Assembly (NCBI GenBank): GCA_004524535.1
Contig: SDNY01000068.1
Coordinates: forward strand, 1-19,382
Length of the DNA stretch: 19,382 bases
Origin: Promethearchaeota archaeon
GTDB lineage: Archaea; Asgardarchaeota; Lokiarchaeia; Sigyniarchaeales; SOKP01
Direction: 5' to 3'
In this document: piece after piece, positions 372 through 19,131 of the stretch
Position numbering within the stretch: the first letter of the stretch is position 1
Layout: each line of letters opens with the position of its first letter
The notes under the pieces: generated by a model
The model's input: only the letters and a program-made list of their open reading frames with translations
Databases searched by the model: none
Told to the model about the DNA's origin: nothing
Translations under genes and position numbers: made by a program

Positions 372-964
372 TGAGAATCCTATTTATCAACAACTATGAT
401 AGTTTTGTTTATAATTTGGTCAATTATATCTGTCAATTACAACCAGACGCTGAAATCATTGTTGAAGACAATAATATTGCAGTGGATAAAGTAAAAGAGA
501 TGAAAGTTGATAAAATAATAATCTCACCCGGACCTGGACATCCTAAATACGACACGGGTACAGTAATACCACTCATCAAGGAATTCTGCTCTAAAATACC
601 AATTCTAGGAATTTGCTTGGGGCATCAAGCTATAATTGAAGCATTCGGCGAAGATAAAAATATTGAATATGTAGGTAGAGCTAAAGTAGGTCCTATGCAC
701 GGTAAGGAATCTAAAGTCTTTCACGACCAAGAAACAATTCTTAAGGATGTCCCTAATCCACTTCAAGTAATTAGATATCACTCACTCTCCGCAAAATCCG
801 ATATTTTGCCCCAAGACCTTAAAATCAGTGCGACTGCGGATGATGGCACAATCATGGGTGTCCGACATAAGCAATTTCCTGTCGAAGGTCTCCAATTCCA
901 TCCCGAGTCGATAAAAATGAAGCCACATGGAATGAAAATTTTAAAAAACTTTTTAGAACTATAA
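371..964 (+). CDS. trpG: Anthranilate synthase component II (class I glutamine amidotransferase), intact
   Basis: Motifs NYDSF, SPGPG, GICLGHQ (catalytic Cys82), RYHSL and QFHPES (His177/Glu179). Translationally coupled to trpE. Confidence 0.92.
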   Translation: MRILFINNYDSFVYNLVNYICQLQPDAEIIVEDNNIAVDKVKEMKVDKIIISPGPGHPKYDTGTVIPLIKEFCSKIPILGICLGHQAIIEAFGEDKNIEYVGRAKVGPMHGKESKVFHDQETILKDVPNPLQVIRYHSLSAKSDILPQDLKISATADDGTIMGVRHKQFPVEGLQFHPESIKMKPHGMKILKNFLEL

Positions 965-972
965 AATAGAAA

Positions 973-1338
973 TCAAATATCGGTGTTAAAAACCCTGTAT
1001 ATTTCTTTCAATAGTGTTTCTTCTTTAACTGGTTTTGTTAAGAATGATTTGGCTCCATTAGCTAACGCTTTTTCTTTTATAGTTAAATCACCAGAAACAA
1101 ATATAATTTTTGCATATTTATCGCATTCTAAAATTTCTTTCATTATTTCAAGACCATTTTTACCTGGCATTCGATGATCTAATAGGATAATATCAGGTTT
1201 TTGCTTAAAGCATTTAAATTTGTTTATAGCTTCTTCTCCGTTAGTGGAAACATCTAGTACTTCTATATTATTAAAATCCATCATTATTTTATAGCCAAAT
1301 ACTAGATCTTGATTATCCTCGATTATGAATATCTTCAT
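973..1338 (-). CDS. Single-domain response regulator (CheY-like receiver)
   Basis: IIEDN acidic pocket, LLDHRMP phosphoacceptor, FVSG and KPV motifs. 121 aa, directly downstream of the kinase. Confidence 0.9.
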   Translation of the reverse strand: MKIFIIEDNQDLVFGYKIMMDFNNIEVLDVSTNGEEAINKFKCFKQKPDIILLDHRMPGKNGLEIMKEILECDKYAKIIFVSGDLTIKEKALANGAKSFLTKPVKEETLLKEIYRVFNTDI

Positions 1339-1342
1339 TATG

Positions 1343-4300
1343 CTATTCTTCTTCTCTTAATAACACTATTACATTTAATCCTTTAGAAAAATCGTTTTTA
1401 ATTCGATCTTTAATAAAAATCTTTCCATTTATACTTTCAATTATTTTTTTTACAATATATAATCCCATTCCCAAACCTTCTTCACTTAATTTTATTTTCC
1501 TTTCAAAAATTAATTTCTTTAAATCATCTGGTATTCCTGGACCATTATCAACTAACTCAATTTTAATATATTTTACGTTCTGAATTTCCTCCTTGGAGAC
1601 TCTAATATCAAGTTGAATGGATTCTTGATCAGTATGTTTGATTGAATTAATAAGAATATTTTCAATCGCATTATATATTAAATCATTAGCATATCCCTCC
1701 AACACTTGATTATTATAATCAATATTAAAATCGATTTTCTTATGAGGAAATGAATTTCTTATAGATTCAATACTCTTATTAATTAAATTGGATACGAGGT
1801 AAGGATAAATTTTACCTTCGATTTGATCAATTTGGGATAGTAATATAATGTTTTTTACTAAATTTTGTCCTTTTTTAAGTTGATTTAAAATAATATCATT
1901 CAATTCTATTAATTCATCATACCTTTCAGGATTTTTTGGTATTCTTTTAAGAAGTTCACTAGAAGTTAGTATAACTTGTAGAATATTATTTATATCATGA
2001 ACAAAAATATCTTGATAAAGTTCAGCCTTGTTATAGGCATTTCTATACATCTCTCTTGATTTGATTAATTTATCATTAGCTAATTTTTTTTCTGTTATAT
2101 CTTCAATGGATATTAGTATCATTGAACCTTCTTTTCTTATTAATTCTTTAGCATTCAAAAGTATAGTTCTTTGACCAATCTTTTCAAAATTATGAGTTAC
2201 TTCAAAATCAGTAATAATTGAGTGAGTTTTAATAATTTTATCAAATAGTTCACGTAAGTTGGGGATGGACCATTGTCTATTTCCTAAATCATAAACATAA
2301 TTATTTTCTGTTTCTTTTTTATCAACTTGAAATAACTGACAAAATGCTGAATTCACTTTAATCACCTTTAACTCGTTATCTAACACTAGTAATGGAGTTC
2401 TGGTAGTCTCCACGATATTTTCAGCAAATTGCATAGTTTCTAACTTTTCTTCCTCTGCTTTCATTCTATCAGTAATATTAAAAAATGTAAGAACTACTCC
2501 ACTAATAACGTTGTTAATCGTTCTATATGGAATTATACGCATGTTATACCATTGGTCCTCTTTTGTTCGAAGATCTTTTTCTATTGTAATTAATTTCTTA
2601 AGAACTGTTTCAGCATCTTGAATTAAATAATCATATTGGAGATTTGATGAAATATGTTCTATAGGGCGTCCAATATCAGTTTCTATGATGTTAAATATTT
2701 CTTTTATATTTGGAGAAAAACGTTGGATTATAAAATTTTCGTCTAGGAAGAGAGTAGCAATCTCGGTACTTGAAATGAAATTGGATAAATCTGAATTTAC
2801 TTCAGACAATTCCGTTATTTTAATTTCAAGCTCTGAATTAACTGTAGTTAATTCCTCGTTTAAAGACTGAAGTTCTTCTTTAGAGGTCTGTAACTCTTCG
2901 TTTGTACTCTGTAATTCTTCATTAGATGATTGCAATTCTTCATTTGCGGATTTTAATTCTTCATTAGTTGTCTCAAGTTCTTCAATCGTGGTTTGAAGGT
3001 ATTGTTTCGTCGAGAGCAATTCATCTTCTAATTCTTTAATTCTGGCATCTTTATTCGTTTCATTTGAATCATTTACAACCGTTCCTTCTTCAGTTGTTAA
3101 ATCGGGAGTTACTTCTATAAATGATATTACGATTAAACCTTTTAACGAGGTGGGTTGAGTAATTGGCGATAAGGTTAAATTAAATCTAATAATTTTTCTA
3201 TTCAAATTAATTGATAAATTCTCTAATATTATTGGAATCTCAGATTTAGTTGCTTTTCTTAAACCTGAAACTAAGTGTACTTTTAAATTTTCCTTTGACA
3301 TATCAGATATGTTCATTTTTGCCTCTCCCTCTGGTAATTCAAGATAAGAGCCGACTTTTCCATGGATATATAAGATATCTCCTTTTTCATTTACAATTAT
3401 TGAAGGGGGAGTGTATGTCTTTAGTAAGAACTCCTCCATCAGAGCCCCATAATTCGTTATAGCCGCATTTTTAAGAGAGTTTTGTCTTTCAGTTTTAAAT
3501 TTATAGTCAGTTAAAGGGGGAAATGGTCTTGGTATGCCTAAAAGTAAAGGAGCAATTTTATTGCGTTGATAAATTTTCCACCTTCTGTTAATTTCAAGGA
3601 ATAATTGAGGAGAACTACTCACTGTTTCTGAACTCCCTAAAAACAAAAAACCATCCGAATTAAGAGAATAATGGAATAATGTTAACAATTTTTTTTGGAT
3701 ATCTGCGTTAAGATAAATCAATAGATTTCTACAAACAATTAAATCTACGTTAGAAAAAGGAGGATCTGTAATTATATCTTGCGCAGCAAAAACTATTTTT
3801 TCTCTTATGATTGGTTTTATTTTAAATTTATTTCCTTCTAATCTAAAAAATTTACTTAGACGTTCAGATGAGACATCAACAGCAATATTATCTGGATATA
3901 TACCATTGCGTGCCTTTTCTATTGCTGTATCATCGATATCAGTCGCAAAAATTTGTATTTTACAATTGATATGACTCCTGTCCAAGTATTCTTGAAATAA
4001 AATTGCTATTGAATATGGTTCCTCTCCTGTGGAGCATCCAGGAATCCAAATCCTAATTGTTTTATTTGGGGTACAATCCTTAAAAAGTTCGGGAATAACT
4101 TTTGTTCGTAAAATATCATATGCCTCTTTATCCCGAAAAAAATTTGTTACGCCAATTAATAATTCTTTAAAGAGTATCTCAATTTCGATTAGATTATCAC
4201 GAAGATAATTAGCATATTCATGAATGCTATTCATATGATTAATAACCATTCTTCTCTCTATACGTCTGTTCATGGTATTTTCTTTATAACAAGAAAAATC

Positions 4301-4969
4301 ATGATTCATAGTACTATTCAATATTTGAAATATTTTAGAAACAGAATCTTGAACTTCTATATCTTTATTATCATCTTTTTCTTTCAAAAAATTTAATTCA
4401 TGTTGAATATATTTTATCAAAACCTCGGGGATCTCATTAGCTGGAAATACATAATCCACAACAGCATTATTTATAACGCTTTTTGGCATACCATCATATT
4501 TCGCTGATTTTGGATCTTGAGCTATAGCTATTCCTCCGAAACCTTTAATCTCTCTAATACCAAGAGTACCATCTGTCCCAGTTCCCGAAAGAACAATTCC
4601 AATTGCCTTATCTTTTTTTTCTAAAGCTAATGATCTAAAAAAGAAGTCAATTGGTAATCTTAATCCCCTAGGGGCACTAGGTTTTTTAAGATGGAAAACT
4701 CCATCTATTATTTCCATATTAAAATTGGGAGGAATAATATAGGCTTGGTTAGGTAATATCCTCATTCCTTCACTAACTTCTTGAACATTCATGCGTGTAT
4801 ATCGCTTTATCAATTCAGCTAAAGAACTTTTATGATGTGGATCTAAATGGGGTATTAAAACAAATGCCATACCTGTATCTGAGGGCATATTTGAGAAAAA
4901 ATGCTCAAAAGCTTCTAGTCCTCCTGCTGAAGCTCCTATTCCTATAATGGGGAAATCAATTTCTGTCAA
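1343..4969 (-). CDS. CheB methylesterase-CheR methyltransferase-coiled coil-PAS-histidine kinase fusion
   Basis: CheB motifs: GASAGG, IPHLDP, LSGTGTDG. CheR motifs: GVTNFFRD, GCSTGEEPYS, ATDID, CRNLLIY. EELxxxN heptads followed by PAS-like segments. HisKA HDINNILQ; HATPase ENILINSIKH, DNGPGIP, GLGMGL. The TTG start is preceded closely by an in-frame stop, so the exact start is slightly uncertain. Confidence 0.9.
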   Translation of the reverse strand: MTEIDFPIIGIGASAGGLEAFEHFFSNMPSDTGMAFVLIPHLDPHHKSSLAELIKRYTRMNVQEVSEGMRILPNQAYIIPPNFNMEIIDGVFHLKKPSAPRGLRLPIDFFFRSLALEKKDKAIGIVLSGTGTDGTLGIREIKGFGGIAIAQDPKSAKYDGMPKSVINNAVVDYVFPANEIPEVLIKYIQHELNFLKEKDDNKDIEVQDSVSKIFQILNSTMNHDFSCYKENTMNRRIERRMVINHMNSIHEYANYLRDNLIEIEILFKELLIGVTNFFRDKEAYDILRTKVIPELFKDCTPNKTIRIWIPGCSTGEEPYSIAILFQEYLDRSHINCKIQIFATDIDDTAIEKARNGIYPDNIAVDVSSERLSKFFRLEGNKFKIKPIIREKIVFAAQDIITDPPFSNVDLIVCRNLLIYLNADIQKKLLTLFHYSLNSDGFLFLGSSETVSSSPQLFLEINRRWKIYQRNKIAPLLLGIPRPFPPLTDYKFKTERQNSLKNAAITNYGALMEEFLLKTYTPPSIIVNEKGDILYIHGKVGSYLELPEGEAKMNISDMSKENLKVHLVSGLRKATKSEIPIILENLSINLNRKIIRFNLTLSPITQPTSLKGLIVISFIEVTPDLTTEEGTVVNDSNETNKDARIKELEDELLSTKQYLQTTIEELETTNEELKSANEELQSSNEELQSTNEELQTSKEELQSLNEELTTVNSELEIKITELSEVNSDLSNFISSTEIATLFLDENFIIQRFSPNIKEIFNIIETDIGRPIEHISSNLQYDYLIQDAETVLKKLITIEKDLRTKEDQWYNMRIIPYRTINNVISGVVLTFFNITDRMKAEEEKLETMQFAENIVETTRTPLLVLDNELKVIKVNSAFCQLFQVDKKETENNYVYDLGNRQWSIPNLRELFDKIIKTHSIITDFEVTHNFEKIGQRTILLNAKELIRKEGSMILISIEDITEKKLANDKLIKSREMYRNAYNKAELYQDIFVHDINNILQVILTSSELLKRIPKNPERYDELIELNDIILNQLKKGQNLVKNIILLSQIDQIEGKIYPYLVSNLINKSIESIRNSFPHKKIDFNIDYNNQVLEGYANDLIYNAIENILINSIKHTDQESIQLDIRVSKEEIQNVKYIKIELVDNGPGIPDDLKKLIFERKIKLSEEGLGMGLYIVKKIIESINGKIFIKDRIKNDFSKGLNVIVLLREEE
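2828..2983 (-). repeat. Coding 21-bp/7-aa heptad repeat (coiled coil) inside the CheBR kinase
   Basis: EELETTN-EELKSAN-EELQSSN-EELQSTN-EELQTSK-EELQSLN-EELTTVN-SEL, typical of CheB/CheR fusion proteins. Confidence 0.85.
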
Positions 4970-5195: not shown

Positions 5196-5581
5196 AGGAA
5201 TTTTATTCAAAAATACCAATATTTGGAATTAGTTTAGGTCATTAAGCAATTGCCGAAACCTTTGGCGAAGATGAGATTATGGAATACGTGGGCAGAGCTA
5301 AAGTAGGTCCAATGCACGGCAAGGAATCTAAAGTCTTTCACGACCATGAAACGATTCTTAAAGGCGTCCCTAATCCCCTACAAGTAATTAGATATCATTC
5401 ACTCTCCGCAAAATCTGATATTCTACCACAAGACCTTAAAATCAGTGCTACTGCAGATGATGGGACGATCATGGGGGTTCGGCATAAAGAATATCTAGTA
5501 GAAGGATTACAATTTCACCCCGAATCCATCAGAATGAAGCCACATGGAATGCAGATATTAAAGAATTTCTTGAGTTTATAA
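5196..5581 (+). pseudogene. trpG: trpG 3' duplicate, long copy (codons ~70-197); cassette-bounding direct repeat R1
   Basis: Colinear without indels with 579-964. The catalytic Cys codon is AGT (Ser, 5231-5233) and there is an in-frame TAA at 5243-5245. The rest matches trpG to the stop codon. Confidence 0.92.
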
Positions 5582-5620: not shown

Positions 5621-6022
5621 TTACATTTCAAGAGAAATATTTGGGAAATTATCCTCTCGATATCCTGTATCAGGCCAAACATCTACGTTATCATCAAAAT
5701 ATCGAGGAACTAAATGCAAATGAAAATGAAAGACGGATTGTTGAGCCACTTCTCCACTTGCATGGAGAATATTCACTCCGTCAGCATTGAATCTTGATTT
5801 CAATTTTTGAGAGATAAACTTAGTAGTTTTTACTATGTTAAATAATTCATTTTCAGGGATATCATAGATGTTCTCATAATGCTTTTTTGGAGCGATAATT
5901 AAATGTCTTTTTGATATAATCGTATTTGGATTAGGAGCAAAGGCAATAGTATGTTTATTTTCAAATACTTTTAGACTTTTCTCTGATCCATTAATAATCT
6001 TACAAAATATACAATCCTTCAT
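5621..6022 (-). CDS. HIT (histidine triad) family nucleotide hydrolase
   Basis: N-terminal DCIFCKII zinc motif, AQQSVFHFHLHLVPR with the HxHxH triad. Confidence 0.92.
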   Translation of the reverse strand: MKDCIFCKIINGSEKSLKVFENKHTIAFAPNPNTIISKRHLIIAPKKHYENIYDIPENELFNIVKTTKFISQKLKSRFNADGVNILHASGEVAQQSVFHFHLHLVPRYFDDNVDVWPDTGYREDNFPNISLEM

Positions 6023-6118
6023 ACTGAGATTCTCTTTTTATATTCTTAATAAATAAATCTTAATCTTGGTAAATAAATATTTAAGGTTAAATAACTAGTT
6101 TTATAATAGTGACTGATT

Positions 6119-6337
6119 ATGAGTAAAATTACTAAGAAGGAATTACACGATCTTATTGAAAGAATGCCAAACAATTTTACTTTAGAGGATTTGCAGTATC
6201 GTCTGTTTGTTCTTCAAAAATTAGAAAGAGCTGAAAACCAATTTAAGCAAGGTTGTAAAACTACTAATCTCGATGAGATGAGAGAATTAGTAAAAAGTTG
6301 GCGTAGCGAGAAAGAGCAAAATATGGAAACTTACTAA
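6119..6337 (+). CDS. Putative antitoxin of a RelE/ParE pair
   Basis: Small gene upstream of the toxin. K..L..LI..MP..FTLEDLQY.L pattern shared with 7893-8078, 9211-9411 and 19287-19382. Confidence 0.75.
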   Translation: MSKITKKELHDLIERMPNNFTLEDLQYRLFVLQKLERAENQFKQGCKTTNLDEMRELVKSWRSEKEQNMETY

Positions 6338-6355
6338 TATAAATTTTCTTGGAAA

Positions 6356-6640
6356 ATGGTTGATATCAAATTCCATCCTATCGCAAGAGAAGATATTAAA
6401 GAACTATATGACTACTTCTCACGTTATTCTTTAGAATATGCTGATTCTTTTGTCAATAGTCTCTATAATCGTATTGAGGACTTAAAGAGATTCCCAGAAT
6501 TAGGAAAGAAATATCCAGAAAATGAGGATTACCGCCAATTAATCTACCAGAATTATAGAATCCTCTATAAGTATAATAAAGAAGAGGAAAAAGTCATCGT
6601 AATGATTGTCGTGCACTGTTCAAGACAATTGAGAATCTAA
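6356..6640 (+). CDS. Type II toxin, RelE/ParE family
   Basis: 94 aa: MV.I.F...A..D...I..Y, L..FPELG, YRQLIYQNYRILY, VH.SR. Confidence 0.85.
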   Translation: MVDIKFHPIAREDIKELYDYFSRYSLEYADSFVNSLYNRIEDLKRFPELGKKYPENEDYRQLIYQNYRILYKYNKEEEKVIVMIVVHCSRQLRI

Positions 6641-6643
6641 TCT

Positions 6644-6708
6644 ATCCCGAATCCATAAAAATGAAACCCTATGGGATGCAAATTTTAAAAAATTTTTTAG
6701 AACTCTAA
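6644..6708 (+). repeat. trpG 3'-end direct repeat R2 (short)
   Basis: ATCCCGAATCCATAAAAATGAAACCCTATGGGATGCAAATTTTAAAAAATTTTTTAGAACTCTAA translates to PESIKMKPYGMQILKNFLEL* and matches 900-964. Confidence 0.92.
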
Positions 6709-7497: not shown

Positions 7498-7574
7498 GTC
7501 TTCAATTTCACCCCGAATCCATCAAAATGAAGCCCTATGGGATGCAAATTTTAAAAAATTTTTTGGAATTAAAA
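7498..7574 (+). repeat. trpG 3'-end direct repeat R3 (short)
   Basis: Translates to LQFHPESIKMKPYGMQILKNFLEL and matches 888-964. The stop position reads AAA, with TAA two codons later. Confidence 0.92.
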
Positions 7575-7620
7575 ATTAAAAGATAGATTTTTAAAATGTA
7601 ATTAAAAAGATTTTATACAA

Positions 7621-7905
7621 TTATATCCTCAAAAGGCGACTTCCATGGATTATTCTAGCAATTTCTAATATTTCCTCTTTCAAACGATATATTATCCTGA
7701 AATTTCGATAGATTATTTCTCTTATCTCTTCAATTTCTAATTCAGGAACAATTCTACCCATTTTGGGAAATTGGTTTAAGTTTTCAATAATATAAATAAT
7801 TTTCTTGGCAAGGGTTTGAGCAAATTTTGGTGCAGTTTTTTCATAATATTTGATTATTGAGTCATAATCGTCAGCAGCTTTAGGAGACCATCTTATTTCA
7901 ACCAT
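7621..7905 (-). CDS. Type II toxin, RelE/ParE family
   Basis: 94 aa: MVEIRWSPKAADD, L.QFPKMGR.VPE, REIIYRNFRIIY, IIHGSR. Confidence 0.88.
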   Translation of the reverse strand: MVEIRWSPKAADDYDSIIKYYEKTAPKFAQTLAKKIIYIIENLNQFPKMGRIVPELEIEEIREIIYRNFRIIYRLKEEILEIARIIHGSRLLRI

Positions 7906-8078: not shown

Positions 8079-8176
8079 AGTCTTCAATATTATTAATGAC
8101 TTTCTAATTTAAATTTTTAATCTTAAGAATATTCAAAAATCAATTAATTGTTTTTTCTTAGGGTCTATCTTATAGA

Positions 8177-8306: not shown

Positions 8307-8308
8307 AT

Positions 8309-10562: not shown

Positions 10563-13175
10563 GTGGTTAATAAAATGGTAACTGAACTTAAACTTAGAGA
10601 AGATATTAAAATTCATCCTAAGAATGATAGAATCCAGCGTTTAAGAGAAAAGTATCAGACAGACATTCCAAAGATATCAATCCAACGAGCTAAATATTAC
10701 ACGGATAAATGGTTTGAAACGGAAAATAGTAACTTGTCTCTTAATGAACGCGTGGCATTATCCATGTTGCATGTATATGAAAACATGACGCATTATGTAA
10801 ATAGCGAGGATAAAATTGCTGGATATTGGACGGAATCCTTTCTGGGCGTTCCTATAGATATTGAGCGTGGTGTTTTTAATAACGTATATAAAAATGAACT
10901 CAAGAAAGGGCGAATGTTCAAGTTGAGAGTAAAATCTCTTAGTAAGACATTGGGGTTCCTCATCAGAAAACGTCAGTTGGGAAATTTTCGTCATAATATT
11001 AAAATAGTCAAGTCAATGGGCAAACAACCAACGGATCTGAGTATTACAACTATGGATAAGAGAGAAATAAATCCCTATACCATCGATAAAGAGGATCTAG
11101 AGATATTACTCAAAGATTTACTGCCAAAATGGAAGGGAAAAAGCATTATCGATATATTAGATAAAGAAATGCAGAGCTCAAACTTAATTAAGGACAGTGT
11201 GCTCGATTTCTTTTCGGCAGTACCTGCTGTCACGTCAAGACAACTTATCTTTATGTCTCTTTGTTCTAACCTTGCCACATTTCAGGGACATTTAATCCTT
11301 GATTATGAGAAGGTACTTAAAGAGGGCTTGCTCAAAATGAAGGATGACATCGAAAAAACAAAAGTTAATACCAATACTAAAGAAGAATTAGATTTTCTCA
11401 ATTCAATTTCAATTGCGGTTGATGGAATAATTGCCTATTGCAAGCGATTGAAGGAAAAGCTTGAGAACCAAATTTCTATAGAAAAAAACGCTGAGTTAAA
11501 AGAAAATCTTAAAGAAATCTTAAACATCTGCAAAAAAGTTCCGCTCCATCCTGCAAAAAGTTTTAGAGAAGCGGTTCAATCAGCTTGGACGCTTAAAGTT
11601 GCTGTAGAATTAGCTCATCCCATAAATTTAAATTGTTTTGGTCGAGTGGACCAAATATTTTATCCATATTATAAAAGAGATAAGGAGAAAGGAATTATTA
11701 GTGAAGCTGAAGCAGTGGAAATCTTTGAGGAATTACTTTTAAAATTGATGTCACTGAATATAAGGCCAGAATCAAATACGATTGCCAATTTTTACCATCG
11801 ATATCTAGGATCTACGCCAATAACTTTAGGAGGGGTCAAACCAGATGGAACTGATAGCACCAATGATCTTACATATTTATTTATTGATGCCGCAAATGGA
11901 TCAAGAGCAGTCTCGAATATTTCTGTGCGAGTTAATGAGAAAACTCCTGATGATTTGCTTTTAAAAATCGCTGAAGCATTGAATGAAGGAAGTGCAAATA
12001 TTTCAATCTACAATGACGAAGTGAACATTGAAGCCATGAAACGACGCGGTTTTAGCGAAGAAGATGCTAGAGATTATGCTATAATAGGATGCGTAGAACT
12101 TAATTGTCCGGGTAAAACAGGAGCTATGAGTGGAAATGCATTATTGTTATGTCGCTTGCTTGATATGACTCTTAGAAATGGGGATACTCAAACTTTATTT
12201 GGAATGTTAAGGGAAGCTGGGATTAAAACTGGAGATCCTAATAAATTTGAAACTTTTGAAGATTTTATGGATGCTTTCTACCAGCAAGCTAAGGACCAAA
12301 TTGAATTAATCGTTAAAGGTTCTAATTTTCGTGATGAAATTTATGCCAAGAACCAGCCCGCACCATATATATCTGCATTCATGGATGGATGCTTGCAAAA
12401 TAAAAGAGATGTTACTGAAGGAGGAGCCAAATATGACTTATCTGCTATTGGAGTCACCAATAGCATCGCGAATCTGATTGACTCCTTGTATGCTATAAAG
12501 AAGATCATCTTTGAAGATAAGTTTACCACCTTCGATGAATTATTAGATGCTTTGGATAATAATTTTGTTGGTTATGAAGATTTGCATAATCGTATAATGG
12601 AAATAGAAGGTTTTTGGGGAAACGGTAATGCGGAAGTTGATGAATTTGCTCATTCCATTTCAAAAACATTATTTGAAGAGATCTACAAACATAAGAACTA
12701 CCGAGGAGGGCCCTTTATCCCTATTCTACTTAGCATGACCACGCATACCATAGACGGCAGAATCTCTATCGCAACGCCAGATGGAAGATTAGCATCTTCA
12801 CCCTATGCGCCTAGTTGTTCTCCTTATAATGTGGAAAAGAACGGGGTGACTGGCGTTTTTCGCTCTATAGCATCTTTAGACTTTGAGAATTCATTAGGAA
12901 GTGCTGTAAACGTGAAATTCCATCCTTCAGCATTAGGTTCTGAGTTAGAAACAAGAAAGAAATGGGTATCTTTGGTAAAAACATATTTTCAGTTAGGGGG
13001 GCCGCAAGTTCAACCTACCGTGGCTTCGGCTGAAATGCTTATAGACGCACAAAAACATCCAGAAAATTATAAAGATTTAATTGTTAAAGTCGGAGGATAT
13101 AGTGCATTTTTTACGGAATTAGGTATCGAAATTCAGAATGAAGTCATTTCAAGGACCGAACATTTGAGCTGTTAA
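10563..13175 (+). CDS. Glycyl radical enzyme (PFL2/dehydratase-lyase type; substrate unknown)
   Basis: Cys loop YAIIGCVE (single Cys), GRVDQ, ATPDGR, and C-terminal AQKHPENYKDLIVKVGGYSAFF glycyl loop. Start may be GTG 10563 or ATG 10575. Confidence 0.92.
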   Translation: MVNKMVTELKLREDIKIHPKNDRIQRLREKYQTDIPKISIQRAKYYTDKWFETENSNLSLNERVALSMLHVYENMTHYVNSEDKIAGYWTESFLGVPIDIERGVFNNVYKNELKKGRMFKLRVKSLSKTLGFLIRKRQLGNFRHNIKIVKSMGKQPTDLSITTMDKREINPYTIDKEDLEILLKDLLPKWKGKSIIDILDKEMQSSNLIKDSVLDFFSAVPAVTSRQLIFMSLCSNLATFQGHLILDYEKVLKEGLLKMKDDIEKTKVNTNTKEELDFLNSISIAVDGIIAYCKRLKEKLENQISIEKNAELKENLKEILNICKKVPLHPAKSFREAVQSAWTLKVAVELAHPINLNCFGRVDQIFYPYYKRDKEKGIISEAEAVEIFEELLLKLMSLNIRPESNTIANFYHRYLGSTPITLGGVKPDGTDSTNDLTYLFIDAANGSRAVSNISVRVNEKTPDDLLLKIAEALNEGSANISIYNDEVNIEAMKRRGFSEEDARDYAIIGCVELNCPGKTGAMSGNALLLCRLLDMTLRNGDTQTLFGMLREAGIKTGDPNKFETFEDFMDAFYQQAKDQIELIVKGSNFRDEIYAKNQPAPYISAFMDGCLQNKRDVTEGGAKYDLSAIGVTNSIANLIDSLYAIKKIIFEDKFTTFDELLDALDNNFVGYEDLHNRIMEIEGFWGNGNAEVDEFAHSISKTLFEEIYKHKNYRGGPFIPILLSMTTHTIDGRISIATPDGRLASSPYAPSCSPYNVEKNGVTGVFRSIASLDFENSLGSAVNVKFHPSALGSELETRKKWVSLVKTYFQLGGPQVQPTVASAEMLIDAQKHPENYKDLIVKVGGYSAFFTELGIEIQNEVISRTEHLSC

Positions 13176-13196
13176 TTATATTAAATTAAACCACCC

Positions 13197-14105
13197 ATGA
13201 AAGGAATAATCTTCGACATCCATCAATTTGCAATATATGATGGACCAGGCATCCGCACAGTTATTTTTTTGAAGGGGTGTCCATTGTCATGCATTTGGTG
13301 CCATAATCCTGAATCACAAGATCCGGATCCTCAAATCTCATATTTTCAAGAAAAATGCATGAGATGTGGAAAATGCGTGGATTCTTGTCCCAATAAAGCA
13401 CTCACCTTGACATCTGAAGGGATTAAGAGAGATGTTAAAAACTGCAATCTTTGTGGTAACTGCATTAAAGCTTGCCCTAATAAAGTGATGGAAATAGTAG
13501 GCAAGGAATATTCGGTTGAGCAGGCGATCAAGATTGTTGCTGCAGATAAGCCTTTTTACGACAATTCTGGAGGGGGTGTGACTATTTCGGGTGGGGAACC
13601 CACGATGCAATATCCCTTTTTGGTTTCACTACTAAATAATTTAAAGCTTAAAGGCATTCAATCGGCTATTGAAACTTGCGGGTTCTTCAATGAAAAACAA
13701 CTTGATGAACTCCTGGAATTAGTGGATCTTTTTCTATTTGATATCAAACATGTTGATCCTGAAATTCATGAAAAGTTTACCAGTGTAAGAAACGATAAAA
13801 TAAAGAAAAACTTTAAGAAAATCGTAGAGAAAACAGAATCAAAGAAAATAATATGTCGTATCCCCATTATTCCAAATTTTAACAAGGATTTAGAGGTAAT
13901 TAAAGGAATCGCTGAATTTTTGAATAAAGTAAACTATTCCAATGACATCCATTTAATGCCTTATAATAAACTATCTAAAACAAAGTATGAGAAAGTAGGC
14001 ATGGGAAATTTATATAAGGATATGGGAGAACTTAGCGAGAAAGAATTACAAGAAATTAGCAATATTTTTGAAAATCAAGGGTTTAAGGTCTTAATAAATC
14101 AATAA
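13197..14105 (+). CDS. Glycyl-radical enzyme activating enzyme (radical SAM with 2x[4Fe-4S] ferredoxin insert)
   Basis: DGPGIRT..FLKGCPLSCIWCHNPES, CMRCGKCVDSCP, CNLCGNCIKACP, GGGVTISGGEP. Confidence 0.95.
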   Translation: MKGIIFDIHQFAIYDGPGIRTVIFLKGCPLSCIWCHNPESQDPDPQISYFQEKCMRCGKCVDSCPNKALTLTSEGIKRDVKNCNLCGNCIKACPNKVMEIVGKEYSVEQAIKIVAADKPFYDNSGGGVTISGGEPTMQYPFLVSLLNNLKLKGIQSAIETCGFFNEKQLDELLELVDLFLFDIKHVDPEIHEKFTSVRNDKIKKNFKKIVEKTESKKIICRIPIIPNFNKDLEVIKGIAEFLNKVNYSNDIHLMPYNKLSKTKYEKVGMGNLYKDMGELSEKELQEISNIFENQGFKVLINQ

Positions 14106-14154
14106 CCAGTATATGTAAAAAAAATAAAAACAATACAAAAAAGGAGATAAAATT

Positions 14155-15660
14155 ATGGTACATGTTCCAGGATTTTTAGTAAATAGGATATATGAAAAGG
14201 GAAGTTTACAAAATACCGAAGATGGTTTTATGCTTTCATTAAAAAATAGGATAATGTCTATAAAAACATATGGGATAAGTGCATTAAAAGTTACTTTAGA
14301 TGGAGAAATCTCAATTCCACAGGAGGATATTGAACTTGAACTCGATGGACGTATTTTTAAGGTCTCAAATGAACCTCAAAAGGAACTATTAGAATTCTCT
14401 AAAAATTCAAGACTTATATCTCGGGCAAAGGGGCATCATCTCTCAGAGGGGAAACATGTATTAAAAATAAGTTTTGTAACTCATGAATATGGAGGGGTTT
14501 CTCTTAAGATTCAAGATAACGTAGGAGAGGAAGAATATTTAACATTATGGAAGAGAATCAAGAAGCGTATTAAGAAAAAGAAGAAAAAGGTTGCTGCTAA
14601 ACCAATTATTATTGAAGGCGAGCTTGGTGGTATCCCTTTAGATCCAGATTTTTCGAGATTAGAGAAGGTTCTAAGACGAGAAATACCAGATAGAGTCCCA
14701 TTATTTGAATTTGATGTTGAAATTCCTATCAAGGAAGCATTTTTAGGGCGTGAAATTACGACTGCAGAAGATGATGTAGAATTCTATATTCGGGCAGGTT
14801 ACGATTTTGTACCCGTCATTCCACCCTTTTTTACACCAAGATCAATGTCTCAGGCTGAGGGTGAAGAAAGAAGTTGGGTAACAGAAAGCAAAGGGATTAT
14901 TAAAACTATGGAAGATTTTAAGAATTTCCCATGGCCAGATCCTGATAATGTGGACTTTTCGGGATTTTACGAAATTGCAGAGCTCTTACCACCTAAAATG
15001 AGAATTTTAGGATTACTCTCCCCAGCAGCTGTGTTTGGAAATACATCCCAATCGATGGGATTGACCAATTTCTCTTATGCCCTATTTGATAATATTGAAT
15101 TAGTTGAAGCCCTTTTCGAGAAGATCGGTTCTTCTTATTTAAGAATCGCTGAGCGACTTGTAAAGGTGCCGAAGCTAGGAGCGGTATTAATGTCAGATGA
15201 TTTAGCTCATACTGGAGGTTTATTAGTTAATCCAAAAATATACAGGAAGTATGTTTTTCCATGGTATGCTAAATTCGGGGCCATCCTTAAAAAAGCAGAT
15301 ATTCCCTTTCTTTTCCACTCTGATGGGAACTTTATGCCTGTCTTTAACGATTTATACGACTGTGGAATCAGAGGCATCCACCCTATTGAACCCCAAGCAA
15401 TGGATATTGTAAATGTAAAGCAAGAATATGGTGATAAATTCTGTATTTTCGGTAATATCGACCTTGAATACACATTAACTCGAGGAACTGTGGAGGAAGT
15501 GGTAACTCTAGTCAAAAAGAGGCTAAAAGAACTCGCTCCGGGGGGAGGTTATGGACTATCAGCTTCAAATTCCATTCCAGATTACGTTAAGCCTGAAAAT
15601 TTTAGGGCGATGGTTGAAACTGTTAAAAAATATGGTAAGTATCCAATTAATATTGAGTAA
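14155..15660 (+). CDS. Uroporphyrinogen decarboxylase/MtaA-CmuA methyltransferase family protein with extra ~125-aa N-terminal domain
   Basis: PDRVP, FPWPDP, SDDLA, FHSDGN, IHPIEP, FGNID and GGGYGLSASNSI motifs. Adjacent to a corrinoid protein. AAGGAG ribosome-binding-like sequence upstream. Confidence 0.8.
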   Translation: MVHVPGFLVNRIYEKGSLQNTEDGFMLSLKNRIMSIKTYGISALKVTLDGEISIPQEDIELELDGRIFKVSNEPQKELLEFSKNSRLISRAKGHHLSEGKHVLKISFVTHEYGGVSLKIQDNVGEEEYLTLWKRIKKRIKKKKKKVAAKPIIIEGELGGIPLDPDFSRLEKVLRREIPDRVPLFEFDVEIPIKEAFLGREITTAEDDVEFYIRAGYDFVPVIPPFFTPRSMSQAEGEERSWVTESKGIIKTMEDFKNFPWPDPDNVDFSGFYEIAELLPPKMRILGLLSPAAVFGNTSQSMGLTNFSYALFDNIELVEALFEKIGSSYLRIAERLVKVPKLGAVLMSDDLAHTGGLLVNPKIYRKYVFPWYAKFGAILKKADIPFLFHSDGNFMPVFNDLYDCGIRGIHPIEPQAMDIVNVKQEYGDKFCIFGNIDLEYTLTRGTVEEVVTLVKKRLKELAPGGGYGLSASNSIPDYVKPENFRAMVETVKKYGKYPINIE

Positions 15661-15676
15661 AAAGAGGTTAAAAAAA

Positions 15677-16300
15677 ATGGAAGAATTAAAAAAATTAGTA
15701 ATTGATGGTGATAATGTTGAAGCAGTTGATAGAATTCAAAAACTCTTAGCTGAGGGGAATGACCCAAATGATATAGTAAATAATGCTTTAATCCCTGCTA
15801 TGGATAAGGTAGGTGAATTATTCCAAAATAAGGAATATTTCATTCCAGATTTGCTAATTGCAGCAAGAGCAATGGAGGAAGGAATGGCATTTTTAAAACC
15901 ACTACTTGTTAAAGATGAGAGCTCAAAATCGCTAGGTAAGATCGTCCTTGGAACAGTTAAAGGAGATCTACACGATATTGGGAAAGCTTTGGTAGGGATT
16001 ATATTGAAAAGTGCTGGATTTGAAGTGATAGATATTGGTATTGATGTCCCTGCTGAAGAATTTATAGAGGCGATCAAGAAGCATAATCCAATTGCCTTAG
16101 GTATGTGTGCACTTCTGACAATTACAATGATTGAAATGGAAGTAGTAATTAAAGCGATAAAAGAGGCAGGATTACGAGATAACTTGAGAATATTAGTTGG
16201 GGGTGCTCCGGTAAATGATGACTATGCAAAAGAGATAGGAGCAGATTTTTACGGTCCAGACCCAACCTCAGCTAAGAATTATTTATTAGGGATAATATAA
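15677..16300 (+). CDS. Corrinoid (cobalamin-binding) protein, MtaC/MtbC-like
   Basis: Cap domain LIPAMDKVGELF..EYFIPDLL, GTVKGDLHDIGK (DxHxxG), VGGAP, IGAD. Start placed at ATG 15677 after GAGGT, not at 15551. Confidence 0.92.
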   Translation: MEELKKLVIDGDNVEAVDRIQKLLAEGNDPNDIVNNALIPAMDKVGELFQNKEYFIPDLLIAARAMEEGMAFLKPLLVKDESSKSLGKIVLGTVKGDLHDIGKALVGIILKSAGFEVIDIGIDVPAEEFIEAIKKHNPIALGMCALLTITMIEMEVVIKAIKEAGLRDNLRILVGGAPVNDDYAKEIGADFYGPDPTSAKNYLLGII

Positions 16301-16371
16301 CTAATAATAAAAAATAAATAAATATAGAATGTAAATAAAAAATAAACAAAAGAAAAAAAAGGGTTAATAAA

Positions 16372-17736
16372 ATGGAAGAGAAAAATATTAATAAGGAACA
16401 TCTTTTTTTAAAAGCCAGAATGCTTTCTGAGGGTGTAGATCTTACCAGTTCAAAGGAATTATCACCTGAGCTTTATAGGGCTTGGTCTTTAGATAAAAGT
16501 GGAAAACAAAAAGAGGTAGAGCTACCTAAGAAGCTTGACCTTGATAATCCAATGGCTCTCCTTTCTTTATTTGGAGAAATGAAAAAAGATGATACGACTG
16601 TCAATTTTAGACCAGAAATACGGTTTGATAGTACTGGACTTCGTGCACAAATACACCCAAATAAACGCTCCAGATTAGAACTTCTTATCGAAGGGGATAC
16701 TGCAAGTGTTATAGAAAAGGGAAAAACGTTAATAACAGGTAAGTTCCCAAAAAGACTTGAATGGTTAGACCAAAAGTTAGGAGGGGGAATCAACGCGACT
16801 GTTGGGGGTTTATTACCTGCAATGTCAGCTCAAGTCATTAATGTAGTGATTAGTCTATCTTGCTTTAATTATAATACGGGGCGGGGTTGTCGCTTTTGTA
16901 ATCTATTTTCAAACCCAATATCTCGGAAAATTTCTATATTGCCTATGACAATACTGAAATTATGGGCGATGGGGCAAGGAAGAGCAGTTAAAATAGCCGT
17001 TGATAATGGATGGAACGGAAGTTTTGCTCTAAGTGGTGGAGCATTAGCACCTGCCCAAAGAGGAGAGTATTTAGAGCGGCTTGAGGTGGTATTAACAACA
17101 TTGAAGAAAGCTCTGGGTGATGAGAAATTTAACCAAATACCTAAACTTTATAATCATTATCCGCCCGAAGATTTTGCAGACATGCATAAATGGAAAGAAA
17201 TGGGCATTACATCTGTTGGTATTGATTTGGAAGTAATGGATGATGCCTATTATGCTGCCATATGTCCAGGAAAAGCTGCATATAAACCTCTTTCCTATGT
17301 GAGAAAAGCTCAAGAATATTCGGTAAAGGTTTTTGGACCGCTTTTTGGCACAACAGGTTTATTAGTCATGGGTATAGAGCCTATGTCCACATTAGTGGCT
17401 GGTTATGAAGAAAGAATGTCAAAAGGAATATTGCCTATGCCTGTAGTATTTCACCCCGAACCTAATTCTGCCTATGAAGGTTTTCGTCCTCCCACCGCAG
17501 AATGGATTGTAGAGGCCTCTGATAAGATGGCTGACTCCTTTATGAAACATTTTATCAAGTGGCTCCCTGCAGCAATCGAACATGCAGAAAAATGGGATGG
17601 CTCCTTCGATTTGGAAACTGGTTTCGCTCATACGTTTAATTCACTTTCACATCAAACTATTTTATTTGATGAGATCAAGTTGCGACTCGATAAACTGCTC
17701 GATGGCCGACCTTTTTCGGCACTTATAGAGGGATAA
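16372..17736 (+). CDS. Radical SAM protein with non-canonical CX8CX2C motif
   Basis: CFNYNTGRGCRFC at 16861-16899; LSGG, IDLEV, ICPGK, VMGIEP, FHPEP. Confidence 0.75.
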   Translation: MEEKNINKEHLFLKARMLSEGVDLTSSKELSPELYRAWSLDKSGKQKEVELPKKLDLDNPMALLSLFGEMKKDDTTVNFRPEIRFDSTGLRAQIHPNKRSRLELLIEGDTASVIEKGKTLITGKFPKRLEWLDQKLGGGINATVGGLLPAMSAQVINVVISLSCFNYNTGRGCRFCNLFSNPISRKISILPMTILKLWAMGQGRAVKIAVDNGWNGSFALSGGALAPAQRGEYLERLEVVLTTLKKALGDEKFNQIPKLYNHYPPEDFADMHKWKEMGITSVGIDLEVMDDAYYAAICPGKAAYKPLSYVRKAQEYSVKVFGPLFGTTGLLVMGIEPMSTLVAGYEERMSKGILPMPVVFHPEPNSAYEGFRPPTAEWIVEASDKMADSFMKHFIKWLPAAIEHAEKWDGSFDLETGFAHTFNSLSHQTILFDEIKLRLDKLLDGRPFSALIEG

Positions 17737-17798
17737 GAAAAGTAAATAATCAATCAATCTTAGTTCTATTTTAATTTTATAATTTTTACCTAATCATT

Positions 17799-18575
17799 AT
17801 GGAAATATTTATTTTAATTTTGATAGTTCTTGCTTTTGCTACAATTGTAGCTGCAACATTAGGATTTGGAGATAGCTTAATCTTTATAGCAATCACGGCT
17901 CTATTTATTAACATACTATTAGCTATAGTTTTAATCTCATTTTGGTCGTTTTGGATATCAGTTTTTAATGCAATAAAATACAGAGAATATATAGACAAGG
18001 TTTTTGTGAAAAAAAATGTTCCACCAGGAATAATTGGTGCCATACTGGGATCTTTGCTAATAACTATAGCCCCTTTAAAGTGGATCGAATTATTTCTGGG
18101 TTGTTTCATATTAATATATACGATATTTAAATCTTTAGAGATAAAAAAAGAAAACAGATTGAAATCTGAAACTAATAGCGAGGTTGAGCGTAATTTTAAA
18201 GATATTTCTGATCCAATTTTTTATCTAGGATCATTTTCTTATGGTTTTTTTGGGGGATTAATTGGAGCATCAGGACCAATTAATGTAATTTTATTGGAAA
18301 GAAAAGGGCATCAGAAAGAAAGTTTTATTGTAAATTTTGCAATATGTAGTGTAATTATTAGCAGCTTTAAACTTGGGATATATTTAGGAAGTGGTTTATT
18401 TCCTGTTGCTTTCCTCGCTGTATATCTCGCTGGATTTGTTGTTATTGTATTATCAATGAAGTTAGGGCATGCAATAACACCAAAAATTTCCAAGGAAAAA
18501 TTTCAATTTTCTATTTTAATGCTATTATTAATTATTGGGATTAGAATGATTGTTAATTCACTCTTTTATTATTAA
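17799..18575 (+). CDS. TauE/SafE (sulfite exporter-like) family membrane protein
   Basis: About 8 hydrophobic segments in two halves, with ATLGFGDSLI and GFFGGLIGASGP motifs. Confidence 0.8.
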   Translation: MEIFILILIVLAFATIVAATLGFGDSLIFIAITALFINILLAIVLISFWSFWISVFNAIKYREYIDKVFVKKNVPPGIIGAILGSLLITIAPLKWIELFLGCFILIYTIFKSLEIKKENRLKSETNSEVERNFKDISDPIFYLGSFSYGFFGGLIGASGPINVILLERKGHQKESFIVNFAICSVIISSFKLGIYLGSGLFPVAFLAVYLAGFVVIVLSMKLGHAITPKISKEKFQFSILMLLLIIGIRMIVNSLFYY

Positions 18576-18589
18576 ATAAGAATCTTTTT

Positions 18590-18622
18590 CTTATCCTGTT
18601 TAGACACTTTTAGATGGATAAG
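18590..18622 (+). terminator. Possible hairpin after the TauE gene
   Basis: CTTATCC (18590-18596) and GGATAAG (18616-18622) form an inverted repeat that extends with G-U pairs. Function not established. Confidence 0.25.
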
Positions 18623-18744
18623 GAGGGTTACCAATATTTATTAAGGAATATTTTAGACCAGTATCAATAGGATAAAAGGGATCCTAATTTTGTTTATTCT
18701 GGGAATAATAAATATGGAAAAAGACCAACACTTCTTAGATAGCT

Positions 18745-19131
18745 AAAGAATTTTACTCTAAAATGCCAATATTAGGAATTTGTCTATGTCATCAAGCAAT
18801 TGTCGAAGCTTTTGGCGAGGATGAAAGTATGGAATATGTGGGCAAAGCTAAAATAGGTCCTATGCATGGAAAGGAATCTAAAGTCTTTCACGACCAAGAA
18901 ACAATTCTAAAGGATATCCCTAATCCACTTCAAGTAATTAGATATCACTCACTTTCCGCAAAATCCGATATTTTACCCCAGGACCTTAAAATCAGTGCGA
19001 CTGCAGATGATGGAACGATCATGGGGGTTAGGCATAAACAATATCCTATAGAAGGGCTCCAATTCCATCCCGAGTCGATAAAAATGAAACCCTATGGGAT
19101 GAAAATATTAAAAAACTTCTTGGAACTATGA
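18745..19131 (+). pseudogene. trpG: trpG 3' duplicate, long copy (codons 70-197); cassette-bounding direct repeat R7
   Basis: Colinear without indels with 578-964 (KEFYSKMPILGICLCHQ...NFLEL*). Lacks the first 69 codons, including the NYDSF and SPGPG motifs; conserved Gly84 is Cys. Confidence 0.92.

Follow-up and report, generated by a model that had tools for sequence, protein, structure and literature searches.

The trpG locus and its cassettes

The stretch of DNA analysed (the window) is the entire contig SDNY01000068.1, 19,382 nt, from a Promethearchaeota (Lokiarchaeal) metagenome-assembled genome (MAG), GCA_004524535.1, which comprises 198 contigs with 4.4% contamination. An intact trpG is followed by seven cassettes, separated by six in-register copies of the trpG 3' end and one internal piece (R4). 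Positions within trpG are given below as gene nt.

1 to 149, plus strand: exact match to the beginning of contig C80; nt 1 to 37 also overlap with C52 and C133 at their ends, forming a two-in, two-out assembly node
3 to 371, plus strand: 3' end of trpE (anthranilate synthase component I), running off the start of the contig
371 to 964, plus strand: intact trpG, an open reading frame (ORF) of 197 aa, class I glutamine amidotransferase
893 to 922, plus strand: 30-nt block, gene nt 523-552, coding for QFHPESIKMK, where the short repeats start
973 to 4969, minus strand: cassette 1, response regulator and 1208-aa CheB-CheR-PAS-histidine kinase
5196 to 5581, plus strand: R1, displaced trpG copy, gene nt 209-594, two in-frame stops
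5621 to 6640, no single strand: cassette 2, HIT hydrolase (minus) and antitoxin/ParE pair (plus)
6641 to 6708, plus strand: R2, gene nt 527-594, terminal codon TAA
6862 to 7450, plus strand: cassette 3, DUF433/DUF5615 (PIN-like) pair
7498 to 7574, plus strand: R3, gene nt 518-594, terminal codon AAA, that is, without a stop
7621 to 8087, minus strand: cassette 4, ParE toxin and small partner ORF
8177 to 8242, plus strand: R4, gene nt 442-507, internal piece followed by a deletion; 5' remnant of a longer repeat
8243 to 9082, plus strand: cassette 5, two genes (88 and 159 aa) in a VapBC-like layout, inserted into the R4/R5 repeat
9083 to 9153, plus strand: R5, hybrid repeat
9211 to 9683, plus strand: cassette 6, antitoxin/ParE pair
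9703 to 9773, plus strand: R6, gene nt 524-594, terminal codon TAG
9882 to 18575, no single strand: cassette 7, gene products given below
18745 to 19131, plus strand: R7, displaced trpG copy (gene nt 208-594) whose frame is open and ends in TGA
19240 to 19382, plus strand: 143 nt identical to ends of C80, C138 and C133; second two-in, two-out node, where the array continues

A repeat search recovered seven copies of an 84-nt family (at 888, 5505, 6632, 7498, 9077, 9697 and 19055), 69 to 83% identical to the trpG copy; two of them, R1 and R7, stretch upstream for about 385 nt. Overall, the repeats measure 57 to 590 nt and are 69 to 91% identical, with differences mainly at third codon positions, and the long ones begin at gene nt 6, 208, 209, 237, 324, 347 and 425. 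The target-site duplication of a transposon, short, identical at birth and decaying neutrally, does not fit this length, divergence and codon pattern. The inserts are flanked by direct repeats of the target gene's own 3' end, and the gene itself is intact, apparently thanks to a replacement end that the element carries.

Cassette genes lie in both orientations, and the cassettes of 0.5 to 0.85 kb act as discrete units. The genes of cassette 5 have no Pfam match; diverged copies of it lie on C80 (87%) and C133 (84%). Cassette 7 encodes an RHH-type regulator (minus strand), a glycyl radical enzyme, an activase, an MtaA/URO-D-like methyltransferase, a corrinoid protein, a variant radical SAM protein and a TauE exporter. 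Cassette 6 is 98.2% identical to a cassette of the sister genome L002, another species, versus only 89.4% for the trpE-trpG flank; judging from these identities, one cassette has clearly been exchanged between species.

The array appears to extend over four contigs, about 70 kb and about 20 fragments. Outside the window, the same genome holds 21 more trpG pieces (on C80, C138, C123, C18, C133 and C167), and overlaps between contig ends allow the path C52-{C167|C80}-C133rc-{C167|C80}-C138rc, with each contig used once. Since a second intact allele lies on C80, the trpG of the window may be the one that is expressed, or it may be a complete copy that was displaced; given the 4.4% contamination, the two trpE'-trpG copies could also derive from two strains. 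The trpE fragment of C133 matches Chorismate_bind.

The repeats diverge as coding sequences

A sequence-only reading of this DNA had proposed that the repeats were once functional ends of trpG alleles. The observations behind it are accurate. The six in-register copies contain no indel (R4 being an internal piece only), and over the last 72 nt trpG differs from R7 at 8 positions and from R1 at 17. The terminal codons are TAA (trpG, R1, R2, R5), TAG (R6) and TGA (R7), to which the AAA of R3, unmentioned before, is added, and all five variant patches quoted occur in the copies named. The excess of third-position changes is real as well: excluding the terminal codon, 33 columns of these 72 nt vary, of which 20 are third, 10 first and 3 second codon positions. 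Compared with the trpG of the window, R1, R7 and five other long fragments have dN/dS ratios of 0.05 to 0.13; between intact trpG alleles the ratio is 0.04 to 0.08.

These low ratios support a functional past, as do the terminal codons of the repeats, which also end intact alleles of relatives (n = 19; TAA in 7, TAG in 4, TGA in 2 and AAA in 3). The expectation that variants of the repeats would be found in intact alleles elsewhere thus held for the terminal codons, but not for three of the patches (CCC TAT GGG, the 18-nt TTT CAC CCC GAA TCC ATC, and CAG ATA), which occur in 0 of the 19 intact alleles sampled, so that donors of the short repeats were not found among these. In a tree of gene nt 349-591, weakly supported overall with 16 of 24 inner branches open, R7 and a C80 fragment group with the intact L002 allele (support 92/89).

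If the trpG end had been duplicated locally in tandem and the copies had then decayed neutrally, with gene conversion mimicking mosaics, their direct orientation on one contig would be accounted for, and gene conversion could also produce the PHI signal reported below. We nevertheless regard this history as very improbable: the dN/dS ratios of the displaced copies equal those of intact alleles, R7 and the C80 fragment group with the allele of another species, the DNA between copies is unrelated cargo, cassette 5 occurs in three contexts and cassette 6 recurs in L002.

Crossovers inside the repeats

The same reading had placed crossovers within the repeats, and several observations bear this out. 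The PHI test on the seven short copies gives p = 0.015 with a 10-nt window and 0.03 with 15 nt, but no significant signal with windows of 20 and 30 nt; for the long copies, p = 0.001 to 0.003 with windows of 30 to 50 nt. Several window sizes were tried and these p-values are uncorrected. Among pairs of informative sites, 68 of 120 are incompatible.

More directly, a single repeat (gene nt 425-594) runs without interruption in L002 at the place taken in the window by R4, cassette 5 and R5. Cassette 5 is found in three contexts, taking along the 5' part of its right-hand repeat: the 5' part of R5 is common to the C80 copy of the cassette, while its 3' part and downstream flank are common to the resident repeat of L002. 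In-register joints inside repeats were also found in other samples, a contig of run X2 joining 6670 to 927 and one of run X3 joining 9120 to 9741. As these are Logan contigs, not reads, matched at 90% likeness, they come from related organisms, not necessarily from the same population.

Seven pairs of long copies show a flip in divergence from gene nt 425-522 to gene nt 553-591. R7 and C138, for instance, differ at 23 of 98 positions and then at 1 of 39, and the L002 repeat and L002 trpG at 2 of 98 and then 10 of 39. The intervening 30 nt show no difference in six pairs and three in the last (C123 versus L002_R14528). Fisher tests of the flips give p values from 0.034 to 1e-5, for pairs chosen after inspection of the divergence data. 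Termini segregate independently of the upstream part of trpG. Crossover positions can be mapped to about 45 nt, the mosaic breakpoints lying in 893-936 of the window; between long copies they fall within the 893-922 block or at most about 15 nt downstream. All crossover intervals lie inside gene nt 523-574, without one nucleotide common to them all: some require gene nt 555 or less, and one requires 561-566.

In the genus group, third-position diversity drops from 0.281 upstream to 0.075 within the 30-nt block and reaches 0.387 in the terminus. Pairs taken from 51 fragments differ on average by 0.165, 0.145 and 0.443 at the three codon positions in the block, and by 0.266, 0.12 and 0.418 in the terminus. 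Out of 64 fragments, 31 begin at gene nt 515-538, adjoining unrelated cassettes.

Trouble in the assembly might be suspected, with strain variants of one locus put in series by the assembler: the MAG is fragmented and contaminated, and the window starts and ends in repeat nodes. This is scarcely credible, since the same layout is present in the independent assemblies L002, L003, L018 and L020, in about half of 34 metagenome contigs matched by the pattern of the 30-nt block, and in Logan contigs (four runs, three studies in all); moreover, copies 69 to 87% identical are too diverged for collapsed or mis-joined strain variants. Of the 39 relatives searched, 5, which belong to the same family, carry trpG fragments behind the gene, as do L002, L003, L018 and L020. 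Nearly every relative examined has different DNA following trpG; L002 and the window have some cassettes in common, in a different order.

Probable serial insertion at the trpG 3' end

We consider it likely that an additive genomic island has grown at the 3' end of trpG by Campbell-type insertions, one after another, and that the window holds its proximal part. Each cassette would exist, at least transiently, as a circle whose tag resembles the end of trpG. In its minimal form this tag would be about 70 nt, comprising the QFHPESIKMK block, the last 13 codons and the stop, and some circles would carry 250 to 590 nt. A single reciprocal crossover between this tag and trpG, or any resident copy, would insert the circle. 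Upstream of the insert, the gene would be rebuilt from host sequence and the cassette terminus, and so kept intact; downstream, a hybrid of the cassette 5' tag and the former terminus would be left. Repeated insertion would stack cassettes and old termini, while excision and re-insertion would shuffle them into mosaics. Each short repeat is a hybrid, its 5' part coming from the incoming cassette and only the part 3' of the crossover being the displaced former end. The earlier view of the array as a record of allele swapping, not of duplication and decay, keeps its negative half, decay being rejected; its positive half is refined, the swapping being most probably a by-product of cassette insertion.

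The question arises as to which enzyme would perform the crossover. No integrase, resolvase or transposase domain was found in 261 array ORFs (20 from the window, 80 from other array contigs, 108 downstream of trpG in relatives and 53 beside metagenome copies). The MAG has one clear PF00589 match, an Xer-like gene adjoining orc1/cdc6, and one weak match; PF00239 has no match in it. No circular form was seen, a scan of viral contigs gave nothing, and no IntI-type integrase adjoining the array was found. In ten single-strand folds, the repeats did no better than shuffled sequences (z -0.79 to +0.85), unlike attC sites with their imperfect hairpins.

The same scar is present at other genes of this genome. 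At least 13 other loci have a displaced 3' fragment 0.6 to 5.5 kb downstream of the full gene; these fragments have sharp edges, differences of 52, 46 and 160 by codon position, and no motif in common. Cases at 5' ends exist too, on C51 and at C123 64-72 kb.

Two forms of the insertion model are considered. Given this class of mechanism, a site-specific recombinase encoded outside the array and acting in trans comes close to an even call. A single fixed site, however, leaves unexplained why long repeats start at seven different gene positions, and the crossover intervals fit no single nucleotide. Alternatively, no dedicated recombinase would be involved: circles formed by repeat loop-out or from end-joined imported DNA would integrate by RadA-type homologous recombination. 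Crossovers would then cluster in the 30-nt block only as the longest tract in which diverged alleles are identical, and selection would keep only insertions leaving one intact copy. This form is a serious possibility, if hardly a probable one. It is in keeping with the lack of recombinase domains, with the 13 other loci and their sharp, motif-less fragments, with the 5'-end cases, with the variable 5' starts of the repeats, and with the exact identity blocks of 149 and 143 nt that bound the C80/C133 segment. On the other hand, homologous recombination inherits boundaries and creates none, so that the cluster of 31 starts at gene nt 515-538 counts against it; tags of 70 nt with 69 to 83% identity should be poor substrates, and cassettes of 0.5 to 0.85 kb behave as discrete units.

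A free-standing homing endonuclease near trpG, whose break repair replaces the gene end with co-conversion of the flank, would also yield mosaics. The ORF directly after trpG on C80 (230 aa) weakly matches PHROG HNH and homing endonuclease families (E 5e-7 and 7e-4), and in L007 the position immediately behind trpG is taken by a relative with 37.5% identity. Those matches are weak, however, with none in Pfam at 1e-5, and the window has no such ORF. Homing replaces sequence and leaves no stack of displaced copies behind. We regard this scenario as highly unlikely.

Possible significance

Asgard genomes are large and rich in transferred genes, whose route of entry is little known. If serial insertion is correct, about 20 insertions, made one after another at a single site and without an element-borne integrase, could be read from the trpG locus, and coding-like pseudo-ends in these MAGs should be taken as insertion scars that break assemblies and are not paralogues for annotation. 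Should the 13 other scars share one mechanism, it would be among the main ways in which this lineage acquires genes. A broader and rather doubtful proposal is that Lokiarchaea possess an integrase-less, integron-like cassette system docking and exchanging on the coding 3' ends of housekeeping genes, with trpG as its largest case and at least 13 other genes in this genome. If so, tags mimicking host gene ends, and handled by a host enzyme (Xer-like or general recombination), would carry toxin-antitoxin pairs and whole metabolic operons from species to species, and Asgard archaea would generally gain genes in this way. Our search of the literature on Asgard mobile elements found no description of such arrays.

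Comparison with known systems

The island is of a known kind, represented by e14/icd and by tRNA islands; what is unusual is the lack of a recombinase domain in the 261 ORFs, the archaeal host and the 13 or more other scarred genes. Phage 21 also attaches in E. coli icd. In the e14 case, icd runs on into the element, at whose other end a displaced C-terminal fragment (icdC) is found, and excision by icd x icdC recombination yields a chimera that is functional and recognisable by its synonymous changes (PMC13626634). The likeness lies in an element within the 3' end of a housekeeping gene, with the displaced gene end beyond it. However, e14 is one element with its own site-specific recombination in a bacterial host, whereas the host here is an archaeon with seven repeats in the window alone and about 20 genome-wide, no integrase was found, and cassettes go down to 0.5 kb.

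Archaea offer a precedent: among 68 integrated elements, 14 have their target in the 3'-distal portion of a protein gene, and there is one that restores the reading frame by supplying a stop codon; in the text available, these elements are single, bear an integrase or casposase, and have short att sites (13 bp in one example), and no multi-cassette array is described there (PMC6563490).

Sedentary chromosomal integrons, in the partial accounts at hand, share with the trpG array its length, its small cassettes, many of them toxin-antitoxin, and one repeated recombination site. They differ in that here there is no IntI and no hairpin folding, genes lie in both orientations, and the site is the end of a coding gene.

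A further parallel is with tycheposon islands and additive flexible islands at tRNA or tmRNA genes. These grow by serial integration at one site, with older elements pushed inward and partial target copies left between cassettes; their cassette sets differ between close relatives, and cassettes are common across species (bioRxiv 10.1101/2020.12.28.424599; PMC4898812). The trpG array likewise has a fixed hotspot by a conserved gene, variable content and partial target copies between cassettes. In those islands the targets are tRNA genes, the sites measure about 40 nt and the elements bear tyrosine recombinases, whereas no recombinase was found here and the target is coding sequence; for this last reason, the scars at trpG, unlike those of tRNA islands, diverge as codons do.

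The trp locus and its cassettes

The metagenome-assembled genome (MAG; 3.66 Mb, 198 contigs, 99% complete, 4.4% contamination) in which the window forms one entire contig, C167, finds its relatives, when these are retrieved with the TrpG protein, among the Promethearchaeota/Promethearchaeia (Lokiarchaeal Asgard archaea). Downstream of trpG lie seven blocks of unrelated genes, with copies of the trpG 3' end between them; "gene nt" below denotes positions within the 594 nt of trpG.

Features of the window
Window start: trpE 3' end
371-964: intact trpG, 197 aa
Block 1: response regulator and CheB-CheR-PAS histidine kinase (kinase at 1343-4969, minus strand, 1208 aa)
Block 2: HIT protein and ParE pair
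Block 3: DUF433/DUF5615 pair
Block 4: second ParE pair
Block 5: two-gene unit of VapBC-like layout, without Pfam match
Block 6: third ParE pair
Block 7, 9882-18575 (8.7 kb): glycyl radical enzyme, activase, MtaA-like methyltransferase, corrinoid protein, variant radical SAM protein, TauE exporter
5196-5581: repeat R1, gene nt 208/209-594
8177-8242: repeat R4, internal trpG piece
18745-19131: repeat R7, gene nt 208/209-594
R2, R3, R5, R6: each about the last 70 nt of trpG

The kinase of block 1 carries, at about residues 635-730, a run of EELQS.NEEL-type near-repeats that gives weak matches to coiled-coil families. In the large cassette (block 7), the glycyl radical enzyme reaches the cut-off of no named NCBIfam equivalog, and the methyltransferase bears an HMG-CoA-reductase-N-like domain.

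The repeats as probable former gene ends

A sequence-only reading of the window had proposed that each repeat was once the functional 3' end of a trpG allele, and the observation behind it is real. Its counts over 72 nt are exact (8 differences between trpG and R7, 17 between trpG and R1), and the stops TAA, TAG and TGA stand where it had located them; R3, missing from its list, ends in AAA. No indels separate the six in-register copies, and their 33 variable columns, terminal codon excluded, are distributed 10, 3 and 20 over the three codon positions. Compared with the window trpG, seven long fragments, R1 and R7 among them, give dN/dS values of 0.05 to 0.13 (Nei-Gojobori), and the intact alleles of two relatives, L001 and L002, give 0.04 and 0.08. 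R1 contains two in-frame stops, the copies on contigs C123 and C80 one each (on C80, in one copy), and the inside of R7 none; these few stops show recent decay. Among 51 complete fragments from the MAG, its relatives and metagenomes, 11 have an in-frame stop, and variation at third positions is two- to threefold that at first and second ones, both in a 30-nt block described below and in the last 39 nt. The 19 intact alleles end in TAA (7), TAG (4), AAA (3), TGA (2) or another codon (3), so that every terminal variant of the repeats is in use by working genes.

As to the origin of the copies, a tree of gene nt 349-591, mostly unresolved (16 of 24 inner branches open), groups the long fragments of the MAG with the window trpG and with the intact allele of the congeneric species L002 (support 92/69). 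R7 and one C80 fragment are nearest to the L002 allele (92/89). The MAG has a second intact trpG on C80, which belongs to a different clade, that of L008 and L013 (92/87). No close donor of the short repeats was found among the intact alleles, the best of which fits 54 to 58 of 66 nt for five short-type termini; for the R7 terminus it fits 59 of 66. Three of the variant patches that had been taken as marks of swapped alleles occur in none of the 19 intact alleles.

Crossovers inside the repeats

That crossovers take place within the repeats is supported in four ways. The VapBC-like cassette is present three times in the MAG, in the window and, with 87% and 84% identity, on C80 and C133; in all three, the sequence just past the last gene runs on into the trpG tag. 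The first ~19 nt of this tag, including a rare ATT codon, are common to the window and C80 copies, and the remainder matches the local neighbour. The place occupied in the window by R4, the VapBC-like cassette and R5 holds a single uninterrupted repeat (gene nt 425-594) in L002. R5 agrees with that repeat over its last 30 nt and on into the next cassette, but over the first 42 positions the two differ 9 times (counted by hand on the alignment).

Among the long copies, relatedness switches at one place, with Fisher p values from 0.034 to 1e-5 for seven pairs that were selected after the table had been inspected.

Differences between long copies by segment (gene nt 425-522; 523-552; 553-591)
R7 and the C138 copy: 23/98; 0/30; 1/39
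C80 fragment and L002 trpG: 3/98; 0/30; 8/39
L002 repeat and L002 trpG: 2/98; 0/30; 10/39

By the PHI test, recombination is supported for the long copies at 30-50 nt (p = 0.001-0.003); among the seven short ones the signal is weak at 10-15 nt (p = 0.015-0.03) and not significant at 20-30 nt. Joints within repeats are also seen in other samples. A Logan contig of run X2 joins 6670 to 927, from R2 to the trpG tail, in register (18 nt fit either side; shorter side 255 nt), and one of run X3, from another study, joins 9120 to 9741, from R5 to R6, in register and skipping the third ParE cassette (shorter side 84 nt); matched at 90% likeness, these contigs represent related genomes with other cassette orders rather than events in a single population. 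Most of the joints in run X1, 19129 to 876 and 7575 to 9725 among them, are out of register, and we read these not as rearrangements but as paralogous array copies matched at the same likeness.

All bracketed breakpoints fall in gene nt 523-574 (window 893-944). This zone opens with the 30-nt block, gene nt 523-552, which encodes QFHPESIKMK and whose His and Glu we take to be two catalytic-triad residues of class I glutamine amidotransferases. Within the genus group, the block has a third-position diversity of 0.075, compared with 0.281 upstream of it and 0.387 downstream; it does not stand out among the 19 intact alleles of the wider family (0.391 versus 0.534 and 0.413). The block is thus homogenised only among recombining copies. 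The short repeats start at it and, over the MAG, relatives and metagenome contigs, 31 of 64 fragments start at gene nt 515-538, beside unrelated cassettes, a count in which some of the other starts are contig ends and for which the metagenome scan demanded the block itself. Folding of an attC-like kind was rejected, the single-stranded repeats folding no better than shuffles. The viral contigs scanned contained no match to a degenerate pattern of the block.

Extent of the array

Beyond the window, blastn detects 21 further trpG pieces in the MAG, including a near full-length pseudogene on C80. C52, which carries the 5' part of trpE, and C133rc each end in the first 37 nt of the window contig and C80. 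These two share their first 149 nt and their last 143 nt, the latter being also the start of C138rc and C133rc. In one path, C52-X-C133rc-Y-C138rc with the window contig and C80 as X and Y, each contig appears a single time and the array comes to ~70 kb with two trpE'-trpG copies. A chromosome plus a ~17-kb circle (C80 and C133), or two strains, would fit the same contig graph. On C133 (350-398 plus 1-349), the middle of trpE is fused in frame to a trpG tag (gene nt 523-571), possibly the joint of a ~17-kb segment (C80 and C133) bearing the second, foreign-clade trpE'-trpG. Just past the last fragment on C138 lies an amino-acid kinase gene, probably the far flank of the array, since the same gene adjoins fragments in metagenome contigs L046 and L063.

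Fragments downstream of trpG were found in 5 of 39 relatives searched, all of the same family, and fragments also occur in L002, L003, L018 and L020; 34 metagenome contigs match the block pattern, and roughly half of these carry fragments. Nearly every relative has different DNA after its trpG. At 98.2% identity, the third ParE cassette is closer to its L002 counterpart than the trpE-trpG flank is (89.4%), which points to a recent transfer of the cassette. In metagenome contig L060 (942-2983), a trpG tag precedes a shortened VapBC-like cassette, of which the first 308 nt are present (97%) and run straight into the radical SAM/TauE end of the large cassette (97%), so that cassette contents rearrange internally too. 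Contigs in which 9889 is joined to 16238, from runs X3 and X4, represent a variant without most of the large cassette. Distant from the trp locus, a 349-nt trpG fragment (C123, 56952-57300) sits between a DUF4760 gene and an AAA_15 ATPase/type IIG methylase block resembling a defence island.

How are the cassettes inserted?

Searches for a dedicated enzyme covered 261 array ORFs with Pfam. Integrase, resolvase and transposase domains were absent from the 20 ORFs of the window, 80 of the other array contigs, 108 downstream of the relatives' trpG and 53 beside metagenome copies. PHROGs and NCBIfam revealed no recombinase among the unnamed ORFs, nor did a protein atlas for the 880-aa ORF of C80 (TPR-like leads only, none reaching 0.9). 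In the MAG as a whole, PF00589 yields one clear tyrosine recombinase, Xer-like, encoded at C126 10749-11672 and adjoining orc1/cdc6, and one weak match on C144; serine recombinases (PF00239) are absent. The ORF directly after the C80 trpG (1244-1936, minus strand) has weak HNH/homing endonuclease PHROG matches, and a relative of it, 37.5% identical, directly follows trpG in L007 (10669-11364).

A site-specific recombinase acting in trans on the trpG tags could well account for the insertions, although we stop short of calling it probable: at trpG the boundaries are clustered and the tags short and diverged, as expected of a defined site. Insertion by homologous recombination is a more tentative possibility, and draws on the rest of the genome. 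Self-comparison of the MAG revealed the same scar, namely a full gene, 0.6-5.5 kb of cargo (often a toxin-antitoxin pair) and a displaced, coding-like 3' fragment, at 13 other loci (for example, msrA on C18, and loci on C23, C28, C74 (two fragments), C93, C104, C137, C145, C186 and C198; C11 and C63 are the further contigs in this set). Differences at the 13 loci fall 52/46/160 by codon position. Their fragment edges are sharp, and no common motif was seen at the 5' edges. There are also mirror cases, in which a 5' gene fragment and the DNA preceding it are found a few kb ahead of the full gene, cargo lying between the two (C123, 63972-64457 versus 71907-72391; C51, 1834-2084 versus 5956-6206). 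Scars without a common motif, together with these 5'-end cases, argue for a process not tied to one sequence. The msrA fragment on C18 has a trpG fragment as its immediate neighbour.

Relation to known systems

The trpG array is an insertion hotspot. The allele swapping put forward by the sequence-only reading is right as far as it goes, but the locus does not exchange alleles for their own sake. Insertion at gene ends is already known, and the array is a variant of it. In the literature searched at abstract level we found no description of such arrays in Asgard archaea; archaeal elements have been documented in 3'-distal portions of protein genes (PMC6563490). Aloposons, giant-gene elements at tRNA sites (PMC8813620), do not match the structure of the array. 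The same logic operates in e14 at icd, where the element carries the gene end, a pseudogene remains of the old one and a chimera results from excision (PMC13626634), as well as in the serial integration at tRNA genes of tycheposon islands and additive genomic islands. What sets the trpG array apart from these systems is its many stacked scars, its small cassettes without integrase, its coding site, its Asgard host and the recurrence of the scar throughout the genome.
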